Part shown: positions 19,354-28,816 of the stretch, in pieces
Numbering within the stretch: the stretch's first letter is position 1
How the letters are laid out: the number at the start of each line of letters is the position of its first letter
DNA from: Sinorhizobium meliloti
GTDB taxonomy: Bacteria > Pseudomonadota > Alphaproteobacteria > Rhizobiales > Rhizobiaceae
Direction: 5' to 3'
NCBI RefSeq assembly: GCF_017876815.1
Contig: NZ_JAGIOS010000003.1
Location: 780,001 to 812,000 of the forward strand
Length of the DNA: 32,000 bases
Notes under the pieces: model-generated
What the model was told of the DNA's origin: nothing
The model's database searches: none
The model's input: only the letters and a program-made list of their open reading frames with translations
Position numbers and translations under genes: made by a program

Positions 19354-21009
19354 CTACTCCGCCGGTCCCGATGCCGCGCCTTCTGGCAACGGTGCGGCGA
19401 CCGGAACATCGTCGTGCCGTTCAGCCAGAGCTGGGACGCCGCGAACGGTCATCCAGATGTTGTAGGTGGCAACGACAGCTCCGATTAGGAACAGCAGGCC
19501 GCCGAAGGCACGGGCGATATAGTAGGGGTACATCGCCACGAGGGAATCCACGAATGAATAGGCGAGCGTCCCCTCCCCCGTATAGGTCCGCCACATCAGG
19601 CCCTGGATGATGCCCGAGTTCCACATTGCGAAGACGTAGATTACGGTGCCGGCGAAGGCGAGCCAGAAATGGACCTCGACGAGGGCTGCCGAATACATCC
19701 TCTCGCGCTTCCAGATCGCTGGCACGAGCGTGTAGAGCGAGCCGTAGGTGATCAACGCCACCCATCCCAGAGCCCCCGCATGGACATGGCCGACTGTCCA
19801 GTCGGTATAGTGCGACAGCGAGTTCACGGGGCGGACCGCGAGGAACGATCCCTCGAAGGTCGAGAGCCCGTAGAAGAAGGCGGCCATCATGATGAAACGC
19901 AGCGTCGCGTCGTCGCGAACCTTGTGCCAGGCCCCGTTCAGCGTCAGCAGGGCGTTGCCGGCCGATGCCCATGAGGGAACCAGCAGCATCACCGAGAACG
20001 TCATTCCGAGGTTCTGTACCCAGTGCGGCAGGGCCGTGTAGTGAAGGTGGTGGGAGCCGGCCCACATGTAGAAGAAGGTTATGCCCCAAAAGCTGAGGAT
20101 CGACAGCCGGTAGGAAAAGATGGGCCGCTCGGCTCGTTTCGGCAGGTAGTAGTAGAGCATCGCCAGGAAGCCTGCCGTCAGGAAGAAGGCGACCGCATTG
20201 TGCCCGTACCACCACTGCACCATCGAGTCCTGCACGCCCGCCCAGATCGTGTAGCTCTTGGCATGGCCGAGCGAGACCGGAACTGCCAGGTTGTTGATGA
20301 TGTGCAGGATCGCCACGACCACGATGAAGGCCATGTAGTACCAGTTGGCGACGTAGATGTGCGGCTCCCTGCGGCGCGCCAGCGTTCGGATGTAGAGGAC
20401 GAAATAGGTGACCCAGACGATGACGAGCCAGAAGTCGGCATACCATTCCGCCTCGGCATATTCCTTCGATTGCGTCACACCCATGAAATAGCCGGTCACT
20501 GCCAGGATGCAGAAGAGGTTGTAGCCGAACAGCACGAACCACGGACTGAGTTGATCTGCCAGCCGGGCGCGCGAGGTCCTCTGAACAACATGGAACGACG
20601 TTGCAATCAGGGCGTTGCCGCCGAACCCGAAAATGACCCCGGTTGTATGAGCGGGTCTGATCCGTCCGAAGCTCGCCCAGGCCGTGTCGAAATTGAGGCT
20701 CGGCCAAGCAAGCTGCGCCGCCGCCCAGACGCCGATGAACATGCCGAAGATCGCCCAGAACAGTGTGAACCAGACGCCGACCTTGATGGGATCGTCGTAG
20801 TAGCGCGAGATGCGCGACGGGTCCGGGGGAGGCCCAAACGAGCTGGACATGATGAGGTACAGCAATGCAAGGCTATAAAGGAGGACAACCGCTCCGTGTA
20901 CTCCGAGCGGGTCGAACCGGCCGGCCGCCGCCATGGCAATACCGACAATAGCCAGGACGAGCAGTATTGCCGCGGCCAGGTCCCGTTCACGCCTCGTCAA
21001 CTGTCCCAT
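19354..21009 (-). CDS. fixN: cbb3-type cytochrome c oxidase catalytic subunit N, 551 aa
   Basis: Full ORF, 12 or more TM helices, His ligands in WWYGHNAV and HHLHYT contexts. GAGGGAG lies 8 nt upstream of the ATG. Confidence 0.95.
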   Translation of the reverse strand: MGQLTRRERDLAAAILLVLAIVGIAMAAAGRFDPLGVHGAVVLLYSLALLYLIMSSSFGPPPDPSRISRYYDDPIKVGVWFTLFWAIFGMFIGVWAAAQLAWPSLNFDTAWASFGRIRPAHTTGVIFGFGGNALIATSFHVVQRTSRARLADQLSPWFVLFGYNLFCILAVTGYFMGVTQSKEYAEAEWYADFWLVIVWVTYFVLYIRTLARRREPHIYVANWYYMAFIVVVAILHIINNLAVPVSLGHAKSYTIWAGVQDSMVQWWYGHNAVAFFLTAGFLAMLYYYLPKRAERPIFSYRLSILSFWGITFFYMWAGSHHLHYTALPHWVQNLGMTFSVMLLVPSWASAGNALLTLNGAWHKVRDDATLRFIMMAAFFYGLSTFEGSFLAVRPVNSLSHYTDWTVGHVHAGALGWVALITYGSLYTLVPAIWKRERMYSAALVEVHFWLAFAGTVIYVFAMWNSGIIQGLMWRTYTGEGTLAYSFVDSLVAMYPYYIARAFGGLLFLIGAVVATYNIWMTVRGVPALAERHDDVPVAAPLPEGAASGPAE

Positions 21010-21315: not shown

Positions 21316-22437
21316 CTAAGAGACCCGTTTCACGCCGGGTGGCTGCCATGTTCCTTTGCCCGCAGGAAGGATCGAGGGTGGCGTAGTCTTCGGCCAATAT
21401 AGCCGCATCACCAGATAGATTGGGCCATCCGGGGCCGGAAGCCAATTTGCTTCCTTGCCCGCACCGGGGTTGTCTTTTTGAATGTACAGCGTCACCGAGC
21501 CGTCCGGCTCCGTCTTCATCCCCGGCAACATCGGAGAATTGATGAGGTAGCGATTGATCGGGTTCTTGACCAGGAACTGGCTCTTGCCGTCATACATCGT
21601 AACGGACCAGAACGCATTCACAGGCGGCAACTGGCCGGGTGGAAAGGTGAGTGTGTACTTGTGCTTGCTGCCGTCGAGCGGTTCCCCGGTCGCATCCGTT
21701 CTGGTGAAGGGGTACATGGCCTCTACTGCATCGTTGCCATAGAGGCCAGCCTTTGCAGCTCCGGCCCGCCTCAACCAATCGCCGTTGAAGAAGACCTCGT
21801 CGCCGAGAAGCGAGCTGACGTTCCAGCCGTTGATGGGTTTGTTTCCGCTGGCCAGCCATTTGTTGATTTTATCGTCACCCTGCTTCACGCCTATCAGCAT
21901 CTCGGCTTTGTGTTCGAGCGATAGTTCCTTGAACTCGAAGGTCTTGCCCGGGCCGATGCCAATCTTCGCAAGTTTCGCGCGAATAGCATTGTCCCTTAAG
22001 GTCTCGGGAACGAATTGCAGGGCCGCGTCGAGATATTGGAAGAAGTTGTCCTTGATCCCGGCGGTGGTGGCTGGAACGAACGCGATCTCCGGCGCGGCGG
22101 TCGGGGCGGGTTGCTTCAGGAATGCGGAAAGCGGCTGCGCCTTGTAGCCGGCCTGCACCTTTTCCACGTTCGGCATGTCTTCTACGTTGATAAGCTGGGT
22201 CCGAAAGTTGGCGAATACGAACGGGGTGGTCGATCGGAAGACCTGCTTGATGCCCTTGGGCTTCTCGCCTTTCCAGTCGGGTCCGACAACGAGATAGGAG
22301 CCTGGCTCGGTCCCGGTGGCGCGAGAGCCGATATATCCGAAATTGTAGGTGTTGCCGTCAATGAGCTGAACCGAGTAATAGCGCTCCTTGTCGACCGCCG
22401 GCACCGAGACCACCACCGGTTCAACGCGCAAGTCCAA
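21316..22437 (-). CDS. DUF1254/DUF1214 two-domain protein, apparently 5'-truncated (373 codons from a TTG)
   Basis: It begins inside the conserved LDL(R/x)xEPVVxxVP...RYYSxQ motif. The signal peptide and about 90 N-terminal residues I expect for this family are missing. The rest (YGNDAVEAMYP..., NAFWSVTMYD..., LVMRLYWP) looks intact. Confidence 0.65.
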   Translation of the reverse strand: MDLRVEPVVVSVPAVDKERYYSVQLIDGNTYNFGYIGSRATGTEPGSYLVVGPDWKGEKPKGIKQVFRSTTPFVFANFRTQLINVEDMPNVEKVQAGYKAQPLSAFLKQPAPTAAPEIAFVPATTAGIKDNFFQYLDAALQFVPETLRDNAIRAKLAKIGIGPGKTFEFKELSLEHKAEMLIGVKQGDDKINKWLASGNKPINGWNVSSLLGDEVFFNGDWLRRAGAAKAGLYGNDAVEAMYPFTRTDATGEPLDGSKHKYTLTFPPGQLPPVNAFWSVTMYDGKSQFLVKNPINRYLINSPMLPGMKTEPDGSVTLYIQKDNPGAGKEANWLPAPDGPIYLVMRLYWPKTTPPSILPAGKGTWQPPGVKRVS

Positions 22438-22439
22438 GC

Positions 22440-22952
22440 CAGCACCCCCGGTTCACCCTGTTCGTATCCCGTGACGACCGGGCTCTTGCCTTCTCGCGCA
22501 GGGTCTGGGGCGACATTCCCCGGCTCGGTTCGATCGACCCCGAGGCCGACCCCTACAAGCAGGAATTGGCGAACAACGAGATCACCGTCATCGATCTTAC
22601 CAAGATCAAGGCAGGCGACGGCATGCATCACGGCAAGTTCGCCGAGTCCCCGGAAGTCGTCCGGCTCATTGGGGCTCGCATCTCCGAAGGTCAGCCACTG
22701 ACCGACAGCCGGATCGGTCTCGGAGACCATCTCATTGCGGGCACGACGGGAGCCGCCGCAGCAGCTGGCAGCGCTGCCGGCCTGATCCTCGCTGCTCCGG
22801 TCGCCGCCATCGATCCGCATACCAGGGGCAACTACGCCAACCACGTCGGCGCGGCGATGGGACGGTCGGATGGCAAGCAGAAGATCGCCGTGACAGACTG
22901 CGTTTCGAGACAGTCGGCTGAGCGCGATCCGGCGTGCGCGCCGCAAAACTGA
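22440..22952 (+). pseudogene. 3' fragment of a DUF900-type alpha/beta hydrolase gene
   Basis: The in-frame translation from 22440 reads QHPRFTLFVSRDDRALAFSRRVWGDIPRLGSIDP...ITVIDLTKIKAGDGMHHGKFAESPEVVRLIG. This is the C-terminal part of DUF900 proteins as I recall them. The catalytic N-terminal half is absent. The track start (TTG 22566) is arbitrary. Confidence 0.55.
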
Positions 22953-23571: not shown

Positions 23572-24603
23572 CTAGCGGCGCGGACGACGTTCTTTGCTGA
23601 TGGGGCTATTCAACAAGCGTTGCACTTCCGCCTCGACGCGGTTGAGCGAAAGCCCTGCCACGCCAAACCTCTCATAGAGCGACGTCAACAACGGGAGCAT
23701 GCATTCGGCCAATCGGCTCTCGATATCGTTGGCAGAAAAGTTTGCCTCCAGCACGGCTTCATCGCTTCGTGCCGCATGACCTTCGACAAGCAGATCACTC
23801 AGCGGGTTAGCCCAGGAGCGCAACACGCGACCGCGCAGGCCCGTGAACATGACGCGGAAATGAACCGTCACGGCTGTATCGGCATCTTTGCGAAGGAGCG
23901 ACGCAAGCTTTTCCGCGTGCAACAGAACCTCACCCATCCGCCATAGGGGAAGCGTCGTGTCGAGGATCGTTCCGGCGGGGAACGTCTCCGCACCATCTTC
24001 CTGATAACCGCGGATCAGGAACATGCGCCCCGAAGGGGCCGCACGCCAGAAATCGCAATGCGCAGGATCATTGAACCCGCGCTCGACTTCCTCGCCTTGC
24101 GGAGCAAGCCAACATTCAATCAGTCCATCAACTTCACGCGGCTGAATAGCCTCGCGTGTCGGAAGCCAGAACGGCGGCCAGCCCGTTTTCCGAACTACGG
24201 CCTTTTCAAGAATGCGTTCAAAGGCGGTCAGCTCCGACATCTTGAGATCGCCCTCAAGCCAGTAGTCGAACCGATACCAGCCATTTGGAAACCGCGCAGG
24301 CGAATCCTGGGGGAGCGGAGCAACCAGATTACGCCAACGCTCAAATGCATCGCGCACGAACCGGGCTTGCGTGTCCCCCTCGGTAGGCTCATCCACCAAA
24401 CCAACGACGCGCAGGATGTCGAGGGCTTTCGCCAGTGTCAGGGTCGTTTCACCACGCTCGAACGCAGCCATTGTCGGATGGCTGACACCCGCCAAAGCCG
24501 AATGATGTTTTTGTGTAAGACCTTCCGCCTTGCGACGGCGCAAGGTTTCTTCCACGTACCGTTGCCACGCAAGCGGAGCTATGTTTCCAGTATTCTCAGG
24601 CAT
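23572..24603 (-). CDS. XRE-family HTH protein with an uncharacterised C-terminal domain of about 270 aa, 343 aa; putative partner (antitoxin/sensor) of the upstream HipA-like kinase
   Basis: Residues 25-75 or so, LTQKHHSALAGVSHPTMAAFERGETTLTLAKALDILRVVGL, are a Cro/C1-type HTH. The remainder (WYRFDYWLEGDL..., GWPPFWLPTREA..., CDFWRAAPSGRMFLIRGYQEDG...) is unassignable by me. The ATG at 24601-24603 lies 25 nt inside the hipA 3' end. Confidence 0.7.
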   Translation of the reverse strand: MPENTGNIAPLAWQRYVEETLRRRKAEGLTQKHHSALAGVSHPTMAAFERGETTLTLAKALDILRVVGLVDEPTEGDTQARFVRDAFERWRNLVAPLPQDSPARFPNGWYRFDYWLEGDLKMSELTAFERILEKAVVRKTGWPPFWLPTREAIQPREVDGLIECWLAPQGEEVERGFNDPAHCDFWRAAPSGRMFLIRGYQEDGAETFPAGTILDTTLPLWRMGEVLLHAEKLASLLRKDADTAVTVHFRVMFTGLRGRVLRSWANPLSDLLVEGHAARSDEAVLEANFSANDIESRLAECMLPLLTSLYERFGVAGLSLNRVEAEVQRLLNSPISKERRPRR

Positions 24604-25751
24604 GAGTTGTCCACGATCTCCTTGAATCTATGCACGAAGCCATCCGCCGGCTCCGCGTCGGGCGGACGGATAATGGATGCAGCCTTCTCCACCTGCCGCT
24701 TTAGCTGTTTGAATGTCTGGTCGATGGCCCTGTCCGGCAGGCCGATCTCCTTGCCGAAGGCGCGGAAAATTGCCTGGTTGGCCGCTTCCAGATGGATTTT
24801 CTCACCGCCGATTGACAGCGCCAATGTTTGGTCGAACCCGTCATAAAATGCGGTGTTCACCACATCGTAGGCGGGGGATAGCCGTAAGCCCGTCGGCGTT
24901 TCCAGAAGGGAGAAGTTTTTCAGGTGGGCATCGCAATTCCCGATCAGGGTGAAGACAATCAGGCGATTGAAAAACCGCAACAGGTCGATTGGCGCGCGCG
25001 ATGAGTGCTGACGAATGATCGCGGCAATATCCTCGTAGGCCGCATCATACTTGCCTGCGTAGTCCTGTCCCTTGGGCTTGCTGAGGATCTGCGCACAGTC
25101 TTCGAGGCGCAGTTTCTCGCCGTTCGGTCTCCGGTCGAAGCGGGTAACAATGAGCGCCGTTTCGTCAACAACCGCGGTGAGCGAGGCCGTGAACCCGGTC
25201 ACTTCCCTTTCGCCAAGGACGGCGGCGGTCCACCGCAGGCTCAGGAGTTCATTTCGAACGAGGTTGTCTATTCGGTCGGAATTGAATTTAGCGATATAGA
25301 GCGCTGATCCCGTCGCACTCGCGGGAACAAACCTGTTTTCATCGTCCTTGGTGACAAGCAGTTTCTTCTGCACACCTGAAACCGTGCGTCCGGGACTGAC
25401 GGTGGCTTCGGTGATTTCCGGGAGCTGTGCGGCATCGTCCGGCGGCCGGATGCTGACGGCCCCGATACAGTCTGCACCGTAACGAAGGAGCAGCCCAAGG
25501 TCGTCTTCTTCGACGATATGTGCCGAACGTGCCTGTTGTTCGCGTAACCATCCTTCCGGGCCGAGGTGCTGGAAAAACGGATGCAGGCCGACCTTCCATT
25601 CATGTTCGCGTTGCGTGGAGGGGAAGCAGCACGCGATATTGCCTTTATTCCAGTCTGAATGATAGGCGAAGCGCGTTCCGCCGTTGGCCGTTTCGACCAA
25701 CGTGCCCGCGGTTTCATCCTTGAACAAAATATTTGCGCTTCTCAGTGCCAT
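24579..25751 (-). CDS. hipA: HipA-family serine/threonine kinase (type II toxin-like), 390 aa
   Basis: Gly-rich loop TVSGVQKKLL, catalytic loop GNCDAHLKNFSLL, Mg-binding loop LSPAYDVVNT. The N-terminal ILFKDETAGTLVE...FAYHSDW is like the HipA coupling domain. Confidence 0.85.
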   Translation of the reverse strand: MALRSANILFKDETAGTLVETANGGTRFAYHSDWNKGNIACCFPSTQREHEWKVGLHPFFQHLGPEGWLREQQARSAHIVEEDDLGLLLRYGADCIGAVSIRPPDDAAQLPEITEATVSPGRTVSGVQKKLLVTKDDENRFVPASATGSALYIAKFNSDRIDNLVRNELLSLRWTAAVLGEREVTGFTASLTAVVDETALIVTRFDRRPNGEKLRLEDCAQILSKPKGQDYAGKYDAAYEDIAAIIRQHSSRAPIDLLRFFNRLIVFTLIGNCDAHLKNFSLLETPTGLRLSPAYDVVNTAFYDGFDQTLALSIGGEKIHLEAANQAIFRAFGKEIGLPDRAIDQTFKQLKRQVEKAASIIRPPDAEPADGFVHRFKEIVDNSCLRILET

Positions 25752-25850
25752 TAAGTTATGCCTTCGCTCTCTACCTCGTACGCGCCCGCTGGGGGGCGCT
25801 TACGAAGCCATACATCCATCATGGTGTGCTGATTTGTAAGAAAATCAAGG

Positions 25851-25951
25851 TATAACTCGATTTCATGCATTTCGCGCCAAACTAACAATCTTTAGCTTTA
25901 TATCCGTCCGATCCGCGCCAGCCACAGCTCGCCTGCGAAACTATAACTCGA
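25851..25951. repeat. Two perfect 10-bp direct repeats TATAACTCGA (25851-25860 and 25942-25951) in the hipA upstream region
   Basis: Read directly, 91 bp apart, both preceded by AA two bases earlier. A GC hairpin GCGCCC-gctggg-GGGCGC at 25782-25799 lies between them and the hipA ATG. Confidence 0.6.
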
Positions 25952-26044: not shown

Positions 26045-26476
26045 TCAGGTTGGCCTGAGACGGGCGAAGAGGGCGAGATTGTAGGCGACCACCGAGGACG
26101 AGACGTAGGTCTCGAAGTGGTGGAGCCCGCGCCAGGTGCAGTGGGCCAGGCCATAGGTCCGCTTCAGGCCGGAAATGCCGGCTTCGATGCCGGCCCGGAA
26201 GTTTCTGAGCTTGCGATACACCCAGCGGCTCCTGACCATATCTTTGATCCGGAGGCGGCCGCTCTTCTTATGGAAGGCCATATCGCGCATACCCCAGGCC
26301 TTGGCCTGGGGTATGTTTTCACGGCTCGCATAGCCGCCGTCGGCGCCCGCCTGCCGCGGCGCCTCGCCATAGAAGGATGTGGCGCTCCAGTAAGGGCAAA
26401 AGCCGCTCGCTGTCGGCCGGAGAATCAGTCCGCTCCTGCCGGTGGTCAGATTGATCTTGCGCTTGAGTTTGACTTG
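26045..26476 (-). mobile_element. 3' remnant of a DDE transposase gene (IS5/IS1182-like), frameshifted
   Basis: The reverse translation gives KINLTTGRSGLIL, then a frame change to PADSERLLPLLERHILL, then a frame change to YGEAPRQAGADGGYASRENIPQAKAWGMRDMAFHKKSGRLRIKDMV...AGIEAGISGLKRTYGLAHCTWRGLHHFETYVSSSVVAYNLALFARL. The DGGY...AFxKK...CxWRG pattern is as I recall for this transposase group. The N-terminal two thirds are missing. Confidence 0.7.
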
Positions 26477-27341: not shown

Positions 27342-27523
27342 TTTTATCATTGCTTTGATCAACGGCGATTGAAGCGAGCTCAGGCGCCGATAGCGCCTGC
27401 CAAAGACACCGACGTCGCAAGGTCCTTGCCTCCATGGGTTTCCTTCCCAACCCAGGAGCGCAATGCCCAAGCGGCGTTTTTTTGTCGGCTTTCGACCGGC
27501 CACCACATTGAGGGAACGTGCGC

Positions 27524-28816
27524 ATGACCAAGACTTTGTTCGGCGGCCTGACCCGCCGCAGCGTGCTGAAGACCACCGCGACGGCCGCCATGGTCGGCGC
27601 AGCGAGAACGCTTTTGCCCTCCGGGGCCTTCGCCCAGGGCGCCGGTCCCGAGACCGCGAAGGCCACCCTCGGCTTCATCGCGCTGACCGATTCAGCCCCG
27701 CTGATCATCGCCAAAGAGAAGGGTTTGTTCGACAAGTACGGCATGACCGAGGTCGAGGTGGTGAAGCAGGCCTCCTGGGGCACGACCCGCGACAATCTGG
27801 TGCTCGGCTCGGCCGGCGCCGGTATCGACGGCGCCCATATCCTGACTCCGATGCCCTATCTCATCTCGACTGGCAAGGTGACGCAGAACAACCAGCCACT
27901 GCCGATGGCGATCCTCGCCCGCCTCAATCTCGACGCGCAGGCGATCTCGGTCGGTGCAGCCTATGCCGATCTGAAGGTCGGCATCGACGCCTCGGTGCTG
28001 AAAGATGCCTTCGCCAAGAAGAAGGCCGGTGGCGAGGCCGCCAAGGTCGCCATGACCTTCCCGGGCGGTACACACGACCTTTGGATCCGCTATTGGCTCG
28101 CCGCCGCCGGCATCGACCCGGACAAGGATGTCGAGACCATCGTCGTCCCGCCGCCGCAGATGGTCGCCAACATGAAGGTCGGCACCATGGACTGTTTCTG
28201 CGTCGGCGAACCCTGGAACGAGCAACTCGTCAACCAGAAGATCGGCTACACCGCTGTCAACACCGCCGAGATCTGGGCCGAGCATCCGGAGAAGTCCTTC
28301 GCCATGCGCGCCGACTGGGTCGAGAAGAACCCGCGCGCCGTCAAGGCGCTGGTCATGGCCATCGAGGAAGCCGCGCAGTGGTGCGACGATATGGCGAACA
28401 AGGACGAACTCGCCAAGATCGTCGGCAAGCGCAGCTGGTTCAACGTGCCGCCAAAGGACATCGTCGATCGGCTGAAAGGTGAATACGACTACGGCAACGG
28501 CAAGATCGTGGAGAACAGCCCCCACTTCATGAAATTCTGGCGCGAACACGCGTCCTACCCGTTCCAGAGCCATGACGCCTGGTTCCTCACCGAGAATATC
28601 CGCTGGGGCAAGCTTGCATCGGATACGGACATCAAGGGGCTGATCGCCAAGGTCAACCGTGAGGACATCTGGCGCGAAGCGGCAAAGGACCTCGGCATCT
28701 CCGACATCCCCGCCTCCACTTCGCGCGGGCCGGAGACCTTCTTCGACGGCAAGGTCTTCGATCCCGCAAATCCCGAAACGTACCTGAAGAGCCTGGCAAT
28801 CAGCCGCATCGCCTGA
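27524..28816 (+). CDS. nrtA: Nitrate/nitrite ABC transporter periplasmic binding protein (NrtA/NMT1 family) with Tat signal, 430 aa
   Basis: I prefer ATG 27524 (GAGGGA 8 nt upstream) over GTG 27518. Twin-arginine LTRRSVLKTTATAAMVGA...AFAQG. NrtA-like TLGFIALTDSAPLIIAKEKGLFDKYGM. Confidence 0.85.
   Translation: MTKTLFGGLTRRSVLKTTATAAMVGAARTLLPSGAFAQGAGPETAKATLGFIALTDSAPLIIAKEKGLFDKYGMTEVEVVKQASWGTTRDNLVLGSAGAGIDGAHILTPMPYLISTGKVTQNNQPLPMAILARLNLDAQAISVGAAYADLKVGIDASVLKDAFAKKKAGGEAAKVAMTFPGGTHDLWIRYWLAAAGIDPDKDVETIVVPPPQMVANMKVGTMDCFCVGEPWNEQLVNQKIGYTAVNTAEIWAEHPEKSFAMRADWVEKNPRAVKALVMAIEEAAQWCDDMANKDELAKIVGKRSWFNVPPKDIVDRLKGEYDYGNGKIVENSPHFMKFWREHASYPFQSHDAWFLTENIRWGKLASDTDIKGLIAKVNREDIWREAAKDLGISDIPASTSRGPETFFDGKVFDPANPETYLKSLAISRIA

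Follow-up and report, generated by a model that had tools for sequence, protein, structure and literature searches.

Hip kinases have been catalogued by Gerdes, Baerentsen & Brodersen (2021, mBio), who assembled 1,239 of them, and the main text of that survey (PMC8262856) includes reversed hipAB subclades (8 modules) and the HipE/hipEB group (12 modules), all of them uncharacterised, in which the kinase gene stands first and the gene of a helix-turn-helix (HTH) protein designated HipB comes next. HipE is described there as a deep-branching clade (IX) with reversed operons throughout. The same text presents hipRF/hipRG, in which a Hip kinase is paired with a putative antitoxin that joins an HTH to a Stl-like domain, the large domain being proposed as the target of phage proteins. 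We analysed a stretch of 32,000 nucleotides from Sinorhizobium meliloti (contig NZ_JAGIOS010000003.1, positions 780,001 to 812,000), referred to as a whole as the window, which contains two overlapping minus-strand open reading frames (ORFs), 24579-25751 (390 aa) and 23572-24603 (343 aa). They encode a HipA-like Ser/Thr kinase and a partner protein in which a HipB-like HTH is followed by a large domain, here called domain X. It is very probable that the two genes form a conserved, mobile, bicistronic HipA-kinase module whose HipB-like partner probably regulates its own synthesis. The module comprises the following features:

24579..25751, minus strand: hipA-like Ser/Thr kinase gene, 390 aa; a HipS-like N-subdomain and then a HipT-like kinase core
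25356..25385, minus strand: Gly-rich (P-loop-like) motif TVSGVQKKLL, residues 128-137; the interval covers residues 123-132, namely the five before the motif and its first five
24903..24941, minus strand: catalytic loop GNCDAHLKNFSLL, residues 271-283; aligns with GNEDMHLKNFSL of the Legionella kinase HipT(Lp)
24852..24881, minus strand: Mg-binding loop LSPAYDVVNT, residues 291-300; P293, Y295 and D296 invariant
24579..24603, minus strand: 25-nt overlap of the hipA end and the partner start; the partner ATG lies 25 nt inside hipA
23572..24603, minus strand: partner gene, 343 aa; HipB-like HTH and domain X; AlphaFold2 (AF2) model with a predicted local distance difference test score (pLDDT) of 84.8
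24400..24537, minus strand: XRE/HipB-type HTH, residues 23-68 of the partner; Pfam HTH_3 and HTH_31, NCBIfam TIGR03070
23599..24378, minus strand: domain X (alpha/beta), residues ~76-335 of the partner; common to defence-type effector proteins
25753..25764, unstranded: operator-like palindrome AAGGCATAACTT (gene strand), overlapping the ribosome-binding site (RBS) and start region of hipA
25847..25858, unstranded: operator-like palindrome GAGTTATACCTT, overlapping a -35-like CTTGAT
25887..25898, unstranded: operator-like palindrome AAGCTAAAGATT
25938..25949, unstranded: operator-like palindrome GAGTTATAGTTT, the most distal of the array

The reversed hipAB and HipE/hipEB modules share with the window module, as far as the main text of the survey describes them, the position of the kinase gene ahead of the gene for an HTH 'HipB' and the retention of the kinase N-subdomain. 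The window clade, isolated and with the reversed order throughout, agrees with what is said of HipE, a match made at the level of the published description. The preliminary description of this locus had called the module possibly undescribed, a wording that holds for the C-terminal domain of the partner and fails for the gene order, which had been published (PMC8262856, main text). That text refers to a 'putative HipB antitoxin with HTH domains' and says nothing of an extra domain of ~265 aa, whereas the window partner carries X, and the 8 hipAB and 12 hipEB modules catalogued there compare with hundreds of members in the window family. The hipRF/hipRG modules are similar in concept, combining a Hip kinase with an HTH protein that bears a large extra domain. 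Their names (hipQF/hipQG in Table S2B of the survey) read, however, as placing the regulator gene first where the window has the kinase first, and their large domain is Stl-like while X is mixed alpha/beta, with no Stl structure among the PDB Foldseek matches listed.

Canonical hipBA of E. coli K-12 as well as of Shewanella oneidensis has in common with the window module the kinase loops, an XRE-HTH partner that is nearest to HipB in structure, and palindromic operator-like sites upstream. It differs in having a HipB of ~70-120 aa encoded upstream, against a partner of 343 aa encoded downstream, in its longer kinase (~440 aa against 390 aa, the latter being nearer to HipT/HipS than to E. coli HipA) and in its operator consensus. 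The hipBST modules of E. coli O127 and Legionella pneumophila share a core like that of HipT(Lp) and a HipS-like N-terminal segment of ~100 aa, but these are divided between separate HipS and HipT proteins in a three-gene arrangement, in contrast to the two genes of the window, where one polypeptide holds the HipS-like part and the kinase and the HTH-X protein is encoded downstream. Relative to the sources searched, the recognition of X, the range of proteins to which it is fused and the operator array appear new.

The kinase contains the Pfam domains Couple_hipA (residues 7-101, E 1.9e-21) and HipA_C (residues 124-357, E 3.9e-43) and is matched by NCBIfam TIGR03071 (E 2.2e-18). The N-subdomain of the long HipA kinases, the Couple_hipA or HipS-like part, is thus present, and the features of the HipA superfamily core were all found: HipA_C, the Gly-rich loop, a D-x-H-x-x-N catalytic loop and the Mg-binding Asp. 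Among solved structures the core is nearest to HipT(Lp) (8ezr, E 4.7e-22), while the first ~100 residues are nearest to the HipS chains 7ab3_B and 7vkb_B, with E. coli HipA more distant; the kinase can therefore be regarded as a short, fused HipA resembling HipS joined to HipT. In an alignment of 75 kinase family members 12.6% of all kinase positions are invariant, including S130, G131, K135, N272, D274, H276, N279, P293, Y295 and D296. T128 is kept in at least 90% of sequences, and in the alignment with HipT(Lp) the Gly-rich motif falls on the loop sVQGVQKKL. T128-V-S130 appears to resemble the Ser-x-Ser autophosphorylation motif of HipT. As judged from these residues, the kinase looks catalytically competent; the preliminary claim that it carries the HipA signatures was borne out, and the prediction of activity made there is supported, by the Pfam matches together with the invariance of the residues in the 75 relatives. 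By sequence identity the kinase clade is isolated among the HipA proteins of plasmids: 24 plasmid records encode a protein at least 60% identical to the window kinase, those with context inspected carrying this module, while the next-best plasmid homologues are at most 34% identical.

A survey of one genome per species gave 80 loci, almost all of them alphaproteobacterial and ranging from Rhizobiaceae to Rickettsiales. In 78 of the 80 the partner gene is directly preceded, on the same strand, by the gene of a HipA homologue, which is the order described for HipE/hipEB, and the same order recurs on independent plasmids of Sphingobium, Azospirillum and Ensifer. The overlap is 25 nt with an ATG start in 57 of 74 loci and 22 nt in a further five. 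Across loci the identities of HipA and of the partner to the respective window proteins are tightly correlated (r = 0.95). The inverted order, the size of the partner at about four times that of HipB and the overlap, all pointed out in the preliminary description, are accordingly conserved features of the family and not accidents of one genome, and the partner is conserved together with the kinase. Everywhere the cassette consists of two genes; upstream of hipA we found the operator region followed by varying neighbours, with no conserved gene. The flanks differ completely between genomes and place the cassette inside a ccm operon, between ABC transporter and MerR/TetR genes, or on plasmids beside insertion sequences (IS), and it is therefore the two genes that make up the unit.

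A small number of loci depart from the intact pair. The kinase gene is disrupted or truncated next to an intact partner in three (L005, L011 and L038), and in Azospirillum halopraeferens (L076, 3869-4969) an HTH-X homologue with 47% identity has no hipA detected upstream, the one partner of the 80 loci to stand alone. This loss of hipA with retention of the partner is what one would expect if the two were toxin and antidote. A further locus, L071, is a partner fragment. In L077, a metagenome-assembled genome (MAG) of the MFD series, hipA is intact and the partner frameshifted, which may be a sequencing error. On plasmid pCFD-2-1 of Sphingobium sp. CFD-2 (L083, 2509-4283) the HTH-X gene follows a HipA-domain protein annotated at 261 aa; truncation, a wrong start or a HipT-like split may explain this short kinase.

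The partner was confirmed as a 343-aa HTH protein overlapping hipA by 25 nt, as had been described, with Pfam HTH_3 at residues 23-68 (E 3.7e-5). Its best NCBIfam match is TIGR03070 (couple_hipB/Y4mF), at E 2e-9 and below the curated cut-off of that model. In some strains the Prokaryotic Genome Annotation Pipeline (PGAP) starts the partner at codon 17, yielding a protein of 327 aa without hipA overlap (the difference being 24556-24603, minus strand). The N-terminal extension is however conserved, with M1 present in at least 90% of sequences and an invariant W13, a residue that is encoded past the hipA stop and whose conservation cannot stem from the overlapping frame. The 343-aa start is therefore preferred, and the existence of more than 766 full-length homologues together with the conserved extension indicates a genuine partner gene, as opposed to a reading frame open by chance. 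Judging from the overlap, its translation is probably coupled to that of hipA.

A confident AF2 model of the partner, built from an alignment of 37 sequences (pLDDT 84.8, predicted template modelling score (pTM) 0.74), begins with a four-helix HTH, continues with a long linker helix (residues 75-94) and ends in a domain of mixed alpha/beta structure. Foldseek searches with the full-length model returned HTH proteins only, headed by the HipB proteins of Legionella (8ezt) and Shewanella (4pu7), and a profile search of PDB sequences with the partner gave HTH matches plus noise such as prolactin. Domain X, of about 250-270 aa, could not be placed in any family in the preliminary description, and this assessment stands: for residues ~76-343 no Pfam, NCBIfam or PADLOC model was found even at E <= 1-10, and a separate model of X (residues 76-343; pLDDT 71, pTM 0.75) had no significant Foldseek match in PDB or BFVD. 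Its sole family match is the PHROG phrog_38563, of function unknown, which covers proteins with X behind a Schlafen domain (SLFN-X). TATA-binding proteins (TBP) recur at the top of both Foldseek lists at non-significant values (TM score <=0.30, probability <=0.77, E >= 1.6e-3). The first half of X is modelled in the order beta-alpha-beta4-alpha. An internal duplication of the kind seen in a TBP-like pseudo-dimer was considered and rejected, an hhalign comparison of the two halves giving a probability of 0.2%. Invariant charged residues of X include E163, D184, R198, E202, D203, E225, H229, R250, R259, D281 and E282.

Domain X is not confined to Hip partners. When 1.84 billion cluster representatives (50% identity) were searched by phmmer, with residues 76-343 as query, 866 representatives came up at E <= 1e-3, 152 of them at E <= 1e-30, in bacteria, on archaeal plasmids and in phages. 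Domain organisation was tallied for the 115 X representatives that are not fragments, and by this sequence comparison X is a discrete, autonomous module that occurs in several architectures. In the commonest (40 of 115) it lies behind a Schlafen/AlbA_2 domain (SLFN_AlbA_2) in proteins of ~450 aa. In others it lies behind an HTH in proteins of ~330 aa, the class to which the window partner belongs (16 of 115), behind TIR (7 of 115) or behind a eukaryotic-type Ser/Thr kinase (Pkinase; 3 of 115). Single cases with X at the C-terminus involve Fic, PNP_UDP_1 and AbiEi_2, a ParA-like domain was also seen before X, and in one protein X stands in front of a pPIWI-associated nuclease domain. The N-terminal parts of X proteins match PADLOC models for defence proteins, known or candidate, namely PD-T4-6, SoFic, ThsB-like TIR / PDC-S66, Aga_Nuclease and PDC-M28B, none of which reaches into X.

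Several of these genes are on mobile elements. SLFN-X genes occur on haloarchaeal plasmids, in a prophage, and near the genome ends of the temperate Burkholderia phages phi1026b (gp78; NC_005284.1, 51997-53364) and phiE125 (gp67; NC_003309.1, 50506-51873). Both gp78 and gp67 are annotated 'ATP-binding protein' and are candidate prophage-encoded defence genes. On a metagenome contig derived from a conjugative element (L091, 4360-5804) a 167-aa SLFN_AlbA_2 gene precedes a separate X-only gene of 267 aa (P0271), which by sequence is either a split SLFN-X or the result of a frameshift; the pair adjoins TraD and MobA/MobL relaxase genes. Of the other stand-alone X proteins, P0146 comes from a contig of 903 bp and P0300 (311 aa) has no annotated domain partner alongside. 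Proteins whose N-terminal parts match the PD-T4-6, SoFic, ThsB-like TIR and SLFN models, and which resemble single-protein defence effectors, hold X in the C-terminal 'sensor' position, whereas in the window HipA is a chain of its own, with X joined to a DNA-binding domain instead. The fused toxin-antitoxin (TA) sensor CapRel is, we presume, an analogue of such X-bearing effectors. For a characterised bacterial Schlafen the C-terminal domain is described as the phage sensor, and a case is cited in which such a domain senses a phage tail protein (PMC13462974).

A repeated palindrome close to AAGCTATAGCTT was spotted by eye in the aligned upstream regions of hipA. In a set of 75 upstream regions, each 260 nt long, sites with at most 3 mismatches number 158, compared with 9.6 +/- 3.0 in shuffled sequences, an enrichment of about 16-fold for a consensus that had been derived by eye from the very sequences used for the count, which are phylogenetically related. 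The sites are periodic, lying near -10, -58, -100, -140 and -195 from the hipA ATG. Within the window AAGNTATANCTT has 8 matches with at most 2 mismatches where 3.0 are expected, and four of the eight are clustered in the 200 bp upstream of hipA. The sequence arrangement suggests autoregulation: with palindromes placed over the RBS and start region and over a -35-like CTTGAT, itself read by eye, it is of the kind that a dimeric HTH protein would be expected to use in repressing its own operon, as in hipBA. In E. coli, hipBA has four operators. Strict scans for sigma-70 promoters and intrinsic terminators gave no hits, either upstream of hipA or past the end of the partner gene. The 5′ untranslated region (5′ UTR) of hipA also contains a stem-loop (25773-25808, minus strand; GCTTCGTAAGCGCCC...GGGCGCGTACGAGG) with a dG of -24.4 kcal/mol and z = -3.5. 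Similar 5′ UTR hairpins occur in some relatives, although they are not general across the family, where the mean z is -0.8 and z falls below -1.5 in 25% of loci compared with 15% in a control segment.

Taken together we propose the following mechanism. The hipA product would be an active Ser/Thr kinase of the HipA/HipT type that halts translation through phosphorylation of an aminoacyl-tRNA synthetase. This effect on translation following release of HipA is inferred from known Hip targets, GltX for HipA and TrpS for HipT (summarised in the main text of PMC8262856). The partner, made by coupled translation, would bind 4-5 palindromic operators resembling AAGCTATAGCTT and spaced ~40-50 bp apart at the hipA promoter and RBS, autorepressing the operon, and the same protein would keep the kinase inactive through direct binding. 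Domain X would then be the regulatory or sensor part, most likely a module for trigger sensing or effector gating, a role suggested by its position at the C-terminus of single-protein defence-type effectors. On meeting a cue, probably derived from a phage or another mobile genetic element (MGE), X would bring about the release of HipA, leading to growth arrest or abortive infection. We infer the toxicity, its neutralisation by the partner, the synthetase target and the sensing by X alike. As a whole, this chain from a toxin-first, autoregulated module to an X-triggered release of HipA seems to us rather probable, whereas for the sensor or gating role of X considered by itself we see the chances as even. 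Tentatively, and with a probability clearly short of even, the reading may be widened to make X a widespread, unnamed sensor or gating domain of prokaryotic immunity, acting in cis with Schlafen, TIR, Ser/Thr kinase, Fic and PNP domains and in trans on HipA by way of HTH-X, in which case the cassette would be an abortive-infection switch triggered by phages or MGEs and not a device for persistence or addiction.

The suggestion that X is a sensor had been made in the preliminary description, and has gained circumstantial backing from its fusion to TIR, Schlafen, PD-T4-6-like kinase, SoFic-like Fic and PNP domains and its presence on phages and mobile elements; nothing was found in support of the alternative offered there, that X mimics a kinase substrate. 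Several observations weigh against the proposed mechanism. Frequently the flanks of the cassette are housekeeping genes and not defence islands, most fusion partners of X are by their domain class nucleic-acid-binding-type (AlbA_2, HTH) and not unambiguous effectors, the many invariant charged residues of X make an enzymatic or effector role conceivable from sequence, and the count of operator-like sites bears the dependence on its own source sequences given above. In addition, the whole of pSymA, the replicon that carries the module in strains Rm1021/2011, can be removed, leaving cells that are viable and grow even faster (PMC4207669), which means that the module does not act as a strong post-segregational killer.

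This tolerated loss of pSymA also speaks against efficient addiction, and with it against an ordinary type II hipAB TA system serving persistence or replicon stabilisation, in which X would be an enlarged antitoxin body without trigger sensing that provides an extra surface for kinase binding or oligomerisation or a protease-sensitive part. Such a system would account for the HipB-like HTH, the operator array, the gene overlap and the decay of the toxin gene first; its occurrence on plasmids, a megaplasmid among them, would suit a stabilisation role, and the main text of the 2021 survey lists reversed hipAB and hipEB simply as TA modules with HTH antitoxins (PMC8262856). A surface specific to HipA would not, however, be expected to travel to TIR, Schlafen, Fic, kinase and PNP proteins unrelated to HipA, and we consider this explanation unlikely, if the strongest of the competing ones. 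Less probable still, and in our view improbable, is that X is itself an enzymatic or nucleic-acid-acting effector brought to its target by HTH, AlbA_2 or the winged HTH of AbiEi, with HipA as a joint actor or as a regulator that, for example, phosphorylates HTH-X. The joining of X to nucleic-acid-binding-type domains in 57 of the 115 architectures, its invariant charged residues and the weak but recurrent likeness to the DNA-binding TBP fold are compatible with this, as is the locus that keeps hipA beside a frameshifted partner. Yet the TBP likeness is not significant, the frameshift comes from a MAG and may be a sequencing error, the gene degraded in L005, L011 and L038 is hipA and not the partner, and a sensor or regulator is a better fit than a second effector to the joining of X to genuine effectors (TIR, Fic, PNP, Ser/Thr kinases).

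The surroundings of the module in the window bear on whether it is still functional, and include one further feature:

26045-26290, minus strand: DDE transposase remnant, an 81-aa ORF for the C-terminus of an IS5/IS1182-type transposase (DDE_Tnp_1, E 2.2e-4, short of the Pfam cut-off)

This IS remnant starts ~100 bp past the most distal operator-like site. On the other side, a DUF900 alpha/beta hydrolase ORF at 22566-22952 (plus strand) matches its family over the last ~37 residues alone, and a DUF1254/DUF1214 gene at 21316-22437 (minus strand) lacks its N-terminus. Strain ml28 has intact DUF2092, adenylate cyclase and hydrolase genes in the same place (L081, 1-5553), and a deletion of several kb beside the cassette is therefore indicated in the window strain. 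Further out lie a COX1-family cytochrome oxidase subunit I gene (19354-21009, minus strand) and the gene of a NrtA-type nitrate ABC-transporter binding protein (27518-28816, plus strand), both ordinary pSymA cargo. The preliminary description had placed the module on a low-GC island beside an IS remnant; the transposase fragment is there, while the dip in GC is modest (0.55-0.60 at the cassette against about 0.60-0.65 in the rest of the window). With a transposase fragment, a hydrolase fragment and a truncated DUF1254/DUF1214 gene as neighbours and a deletion relative to ml28, the module might be taken for a decaying, non-functional remnant in a degraded region of pSymA. That explanation, which we give next to no weight, is rejected in view of the conservation data: both ORFs are intact and 99-100% conserved over ~20 S. 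meliloti pSymA replicons, the catalytic residues are all kept, and the family is conserved at full length in hundreds of genomes.

The segment is 100% identical to pSmeSM11c of S. meliloti SM11 and 99.2% identical to pSymA of strains 1021/2011 (NC_003037.1, 315081-317631). Exact protein records exist for HipA (AEH82451.1) and for the partner (AEH82450.1), and PGAP labels the first 'type II toxin-antitoxin system HipA family toxin' and the second 'transcriptional regulator'. A literature search on this locus found no specific report.

Hip kinases are a model for persistence and TA systems, and the presence of X both on a HipB-like partner and on proteins that match models of anti-phage systems, known or candidate, would offer a testable handle on trigger sensing in their natural activation. 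The locus is carried by pSymA of S. meliloti 1021, 2011 and SM11, where tractable genetics and well-studied phages make experiments feasible. Domain X constitutes a new domain family, absent from Pfam, NCBIfam and PADLOC, which may be used to find further defence genes.

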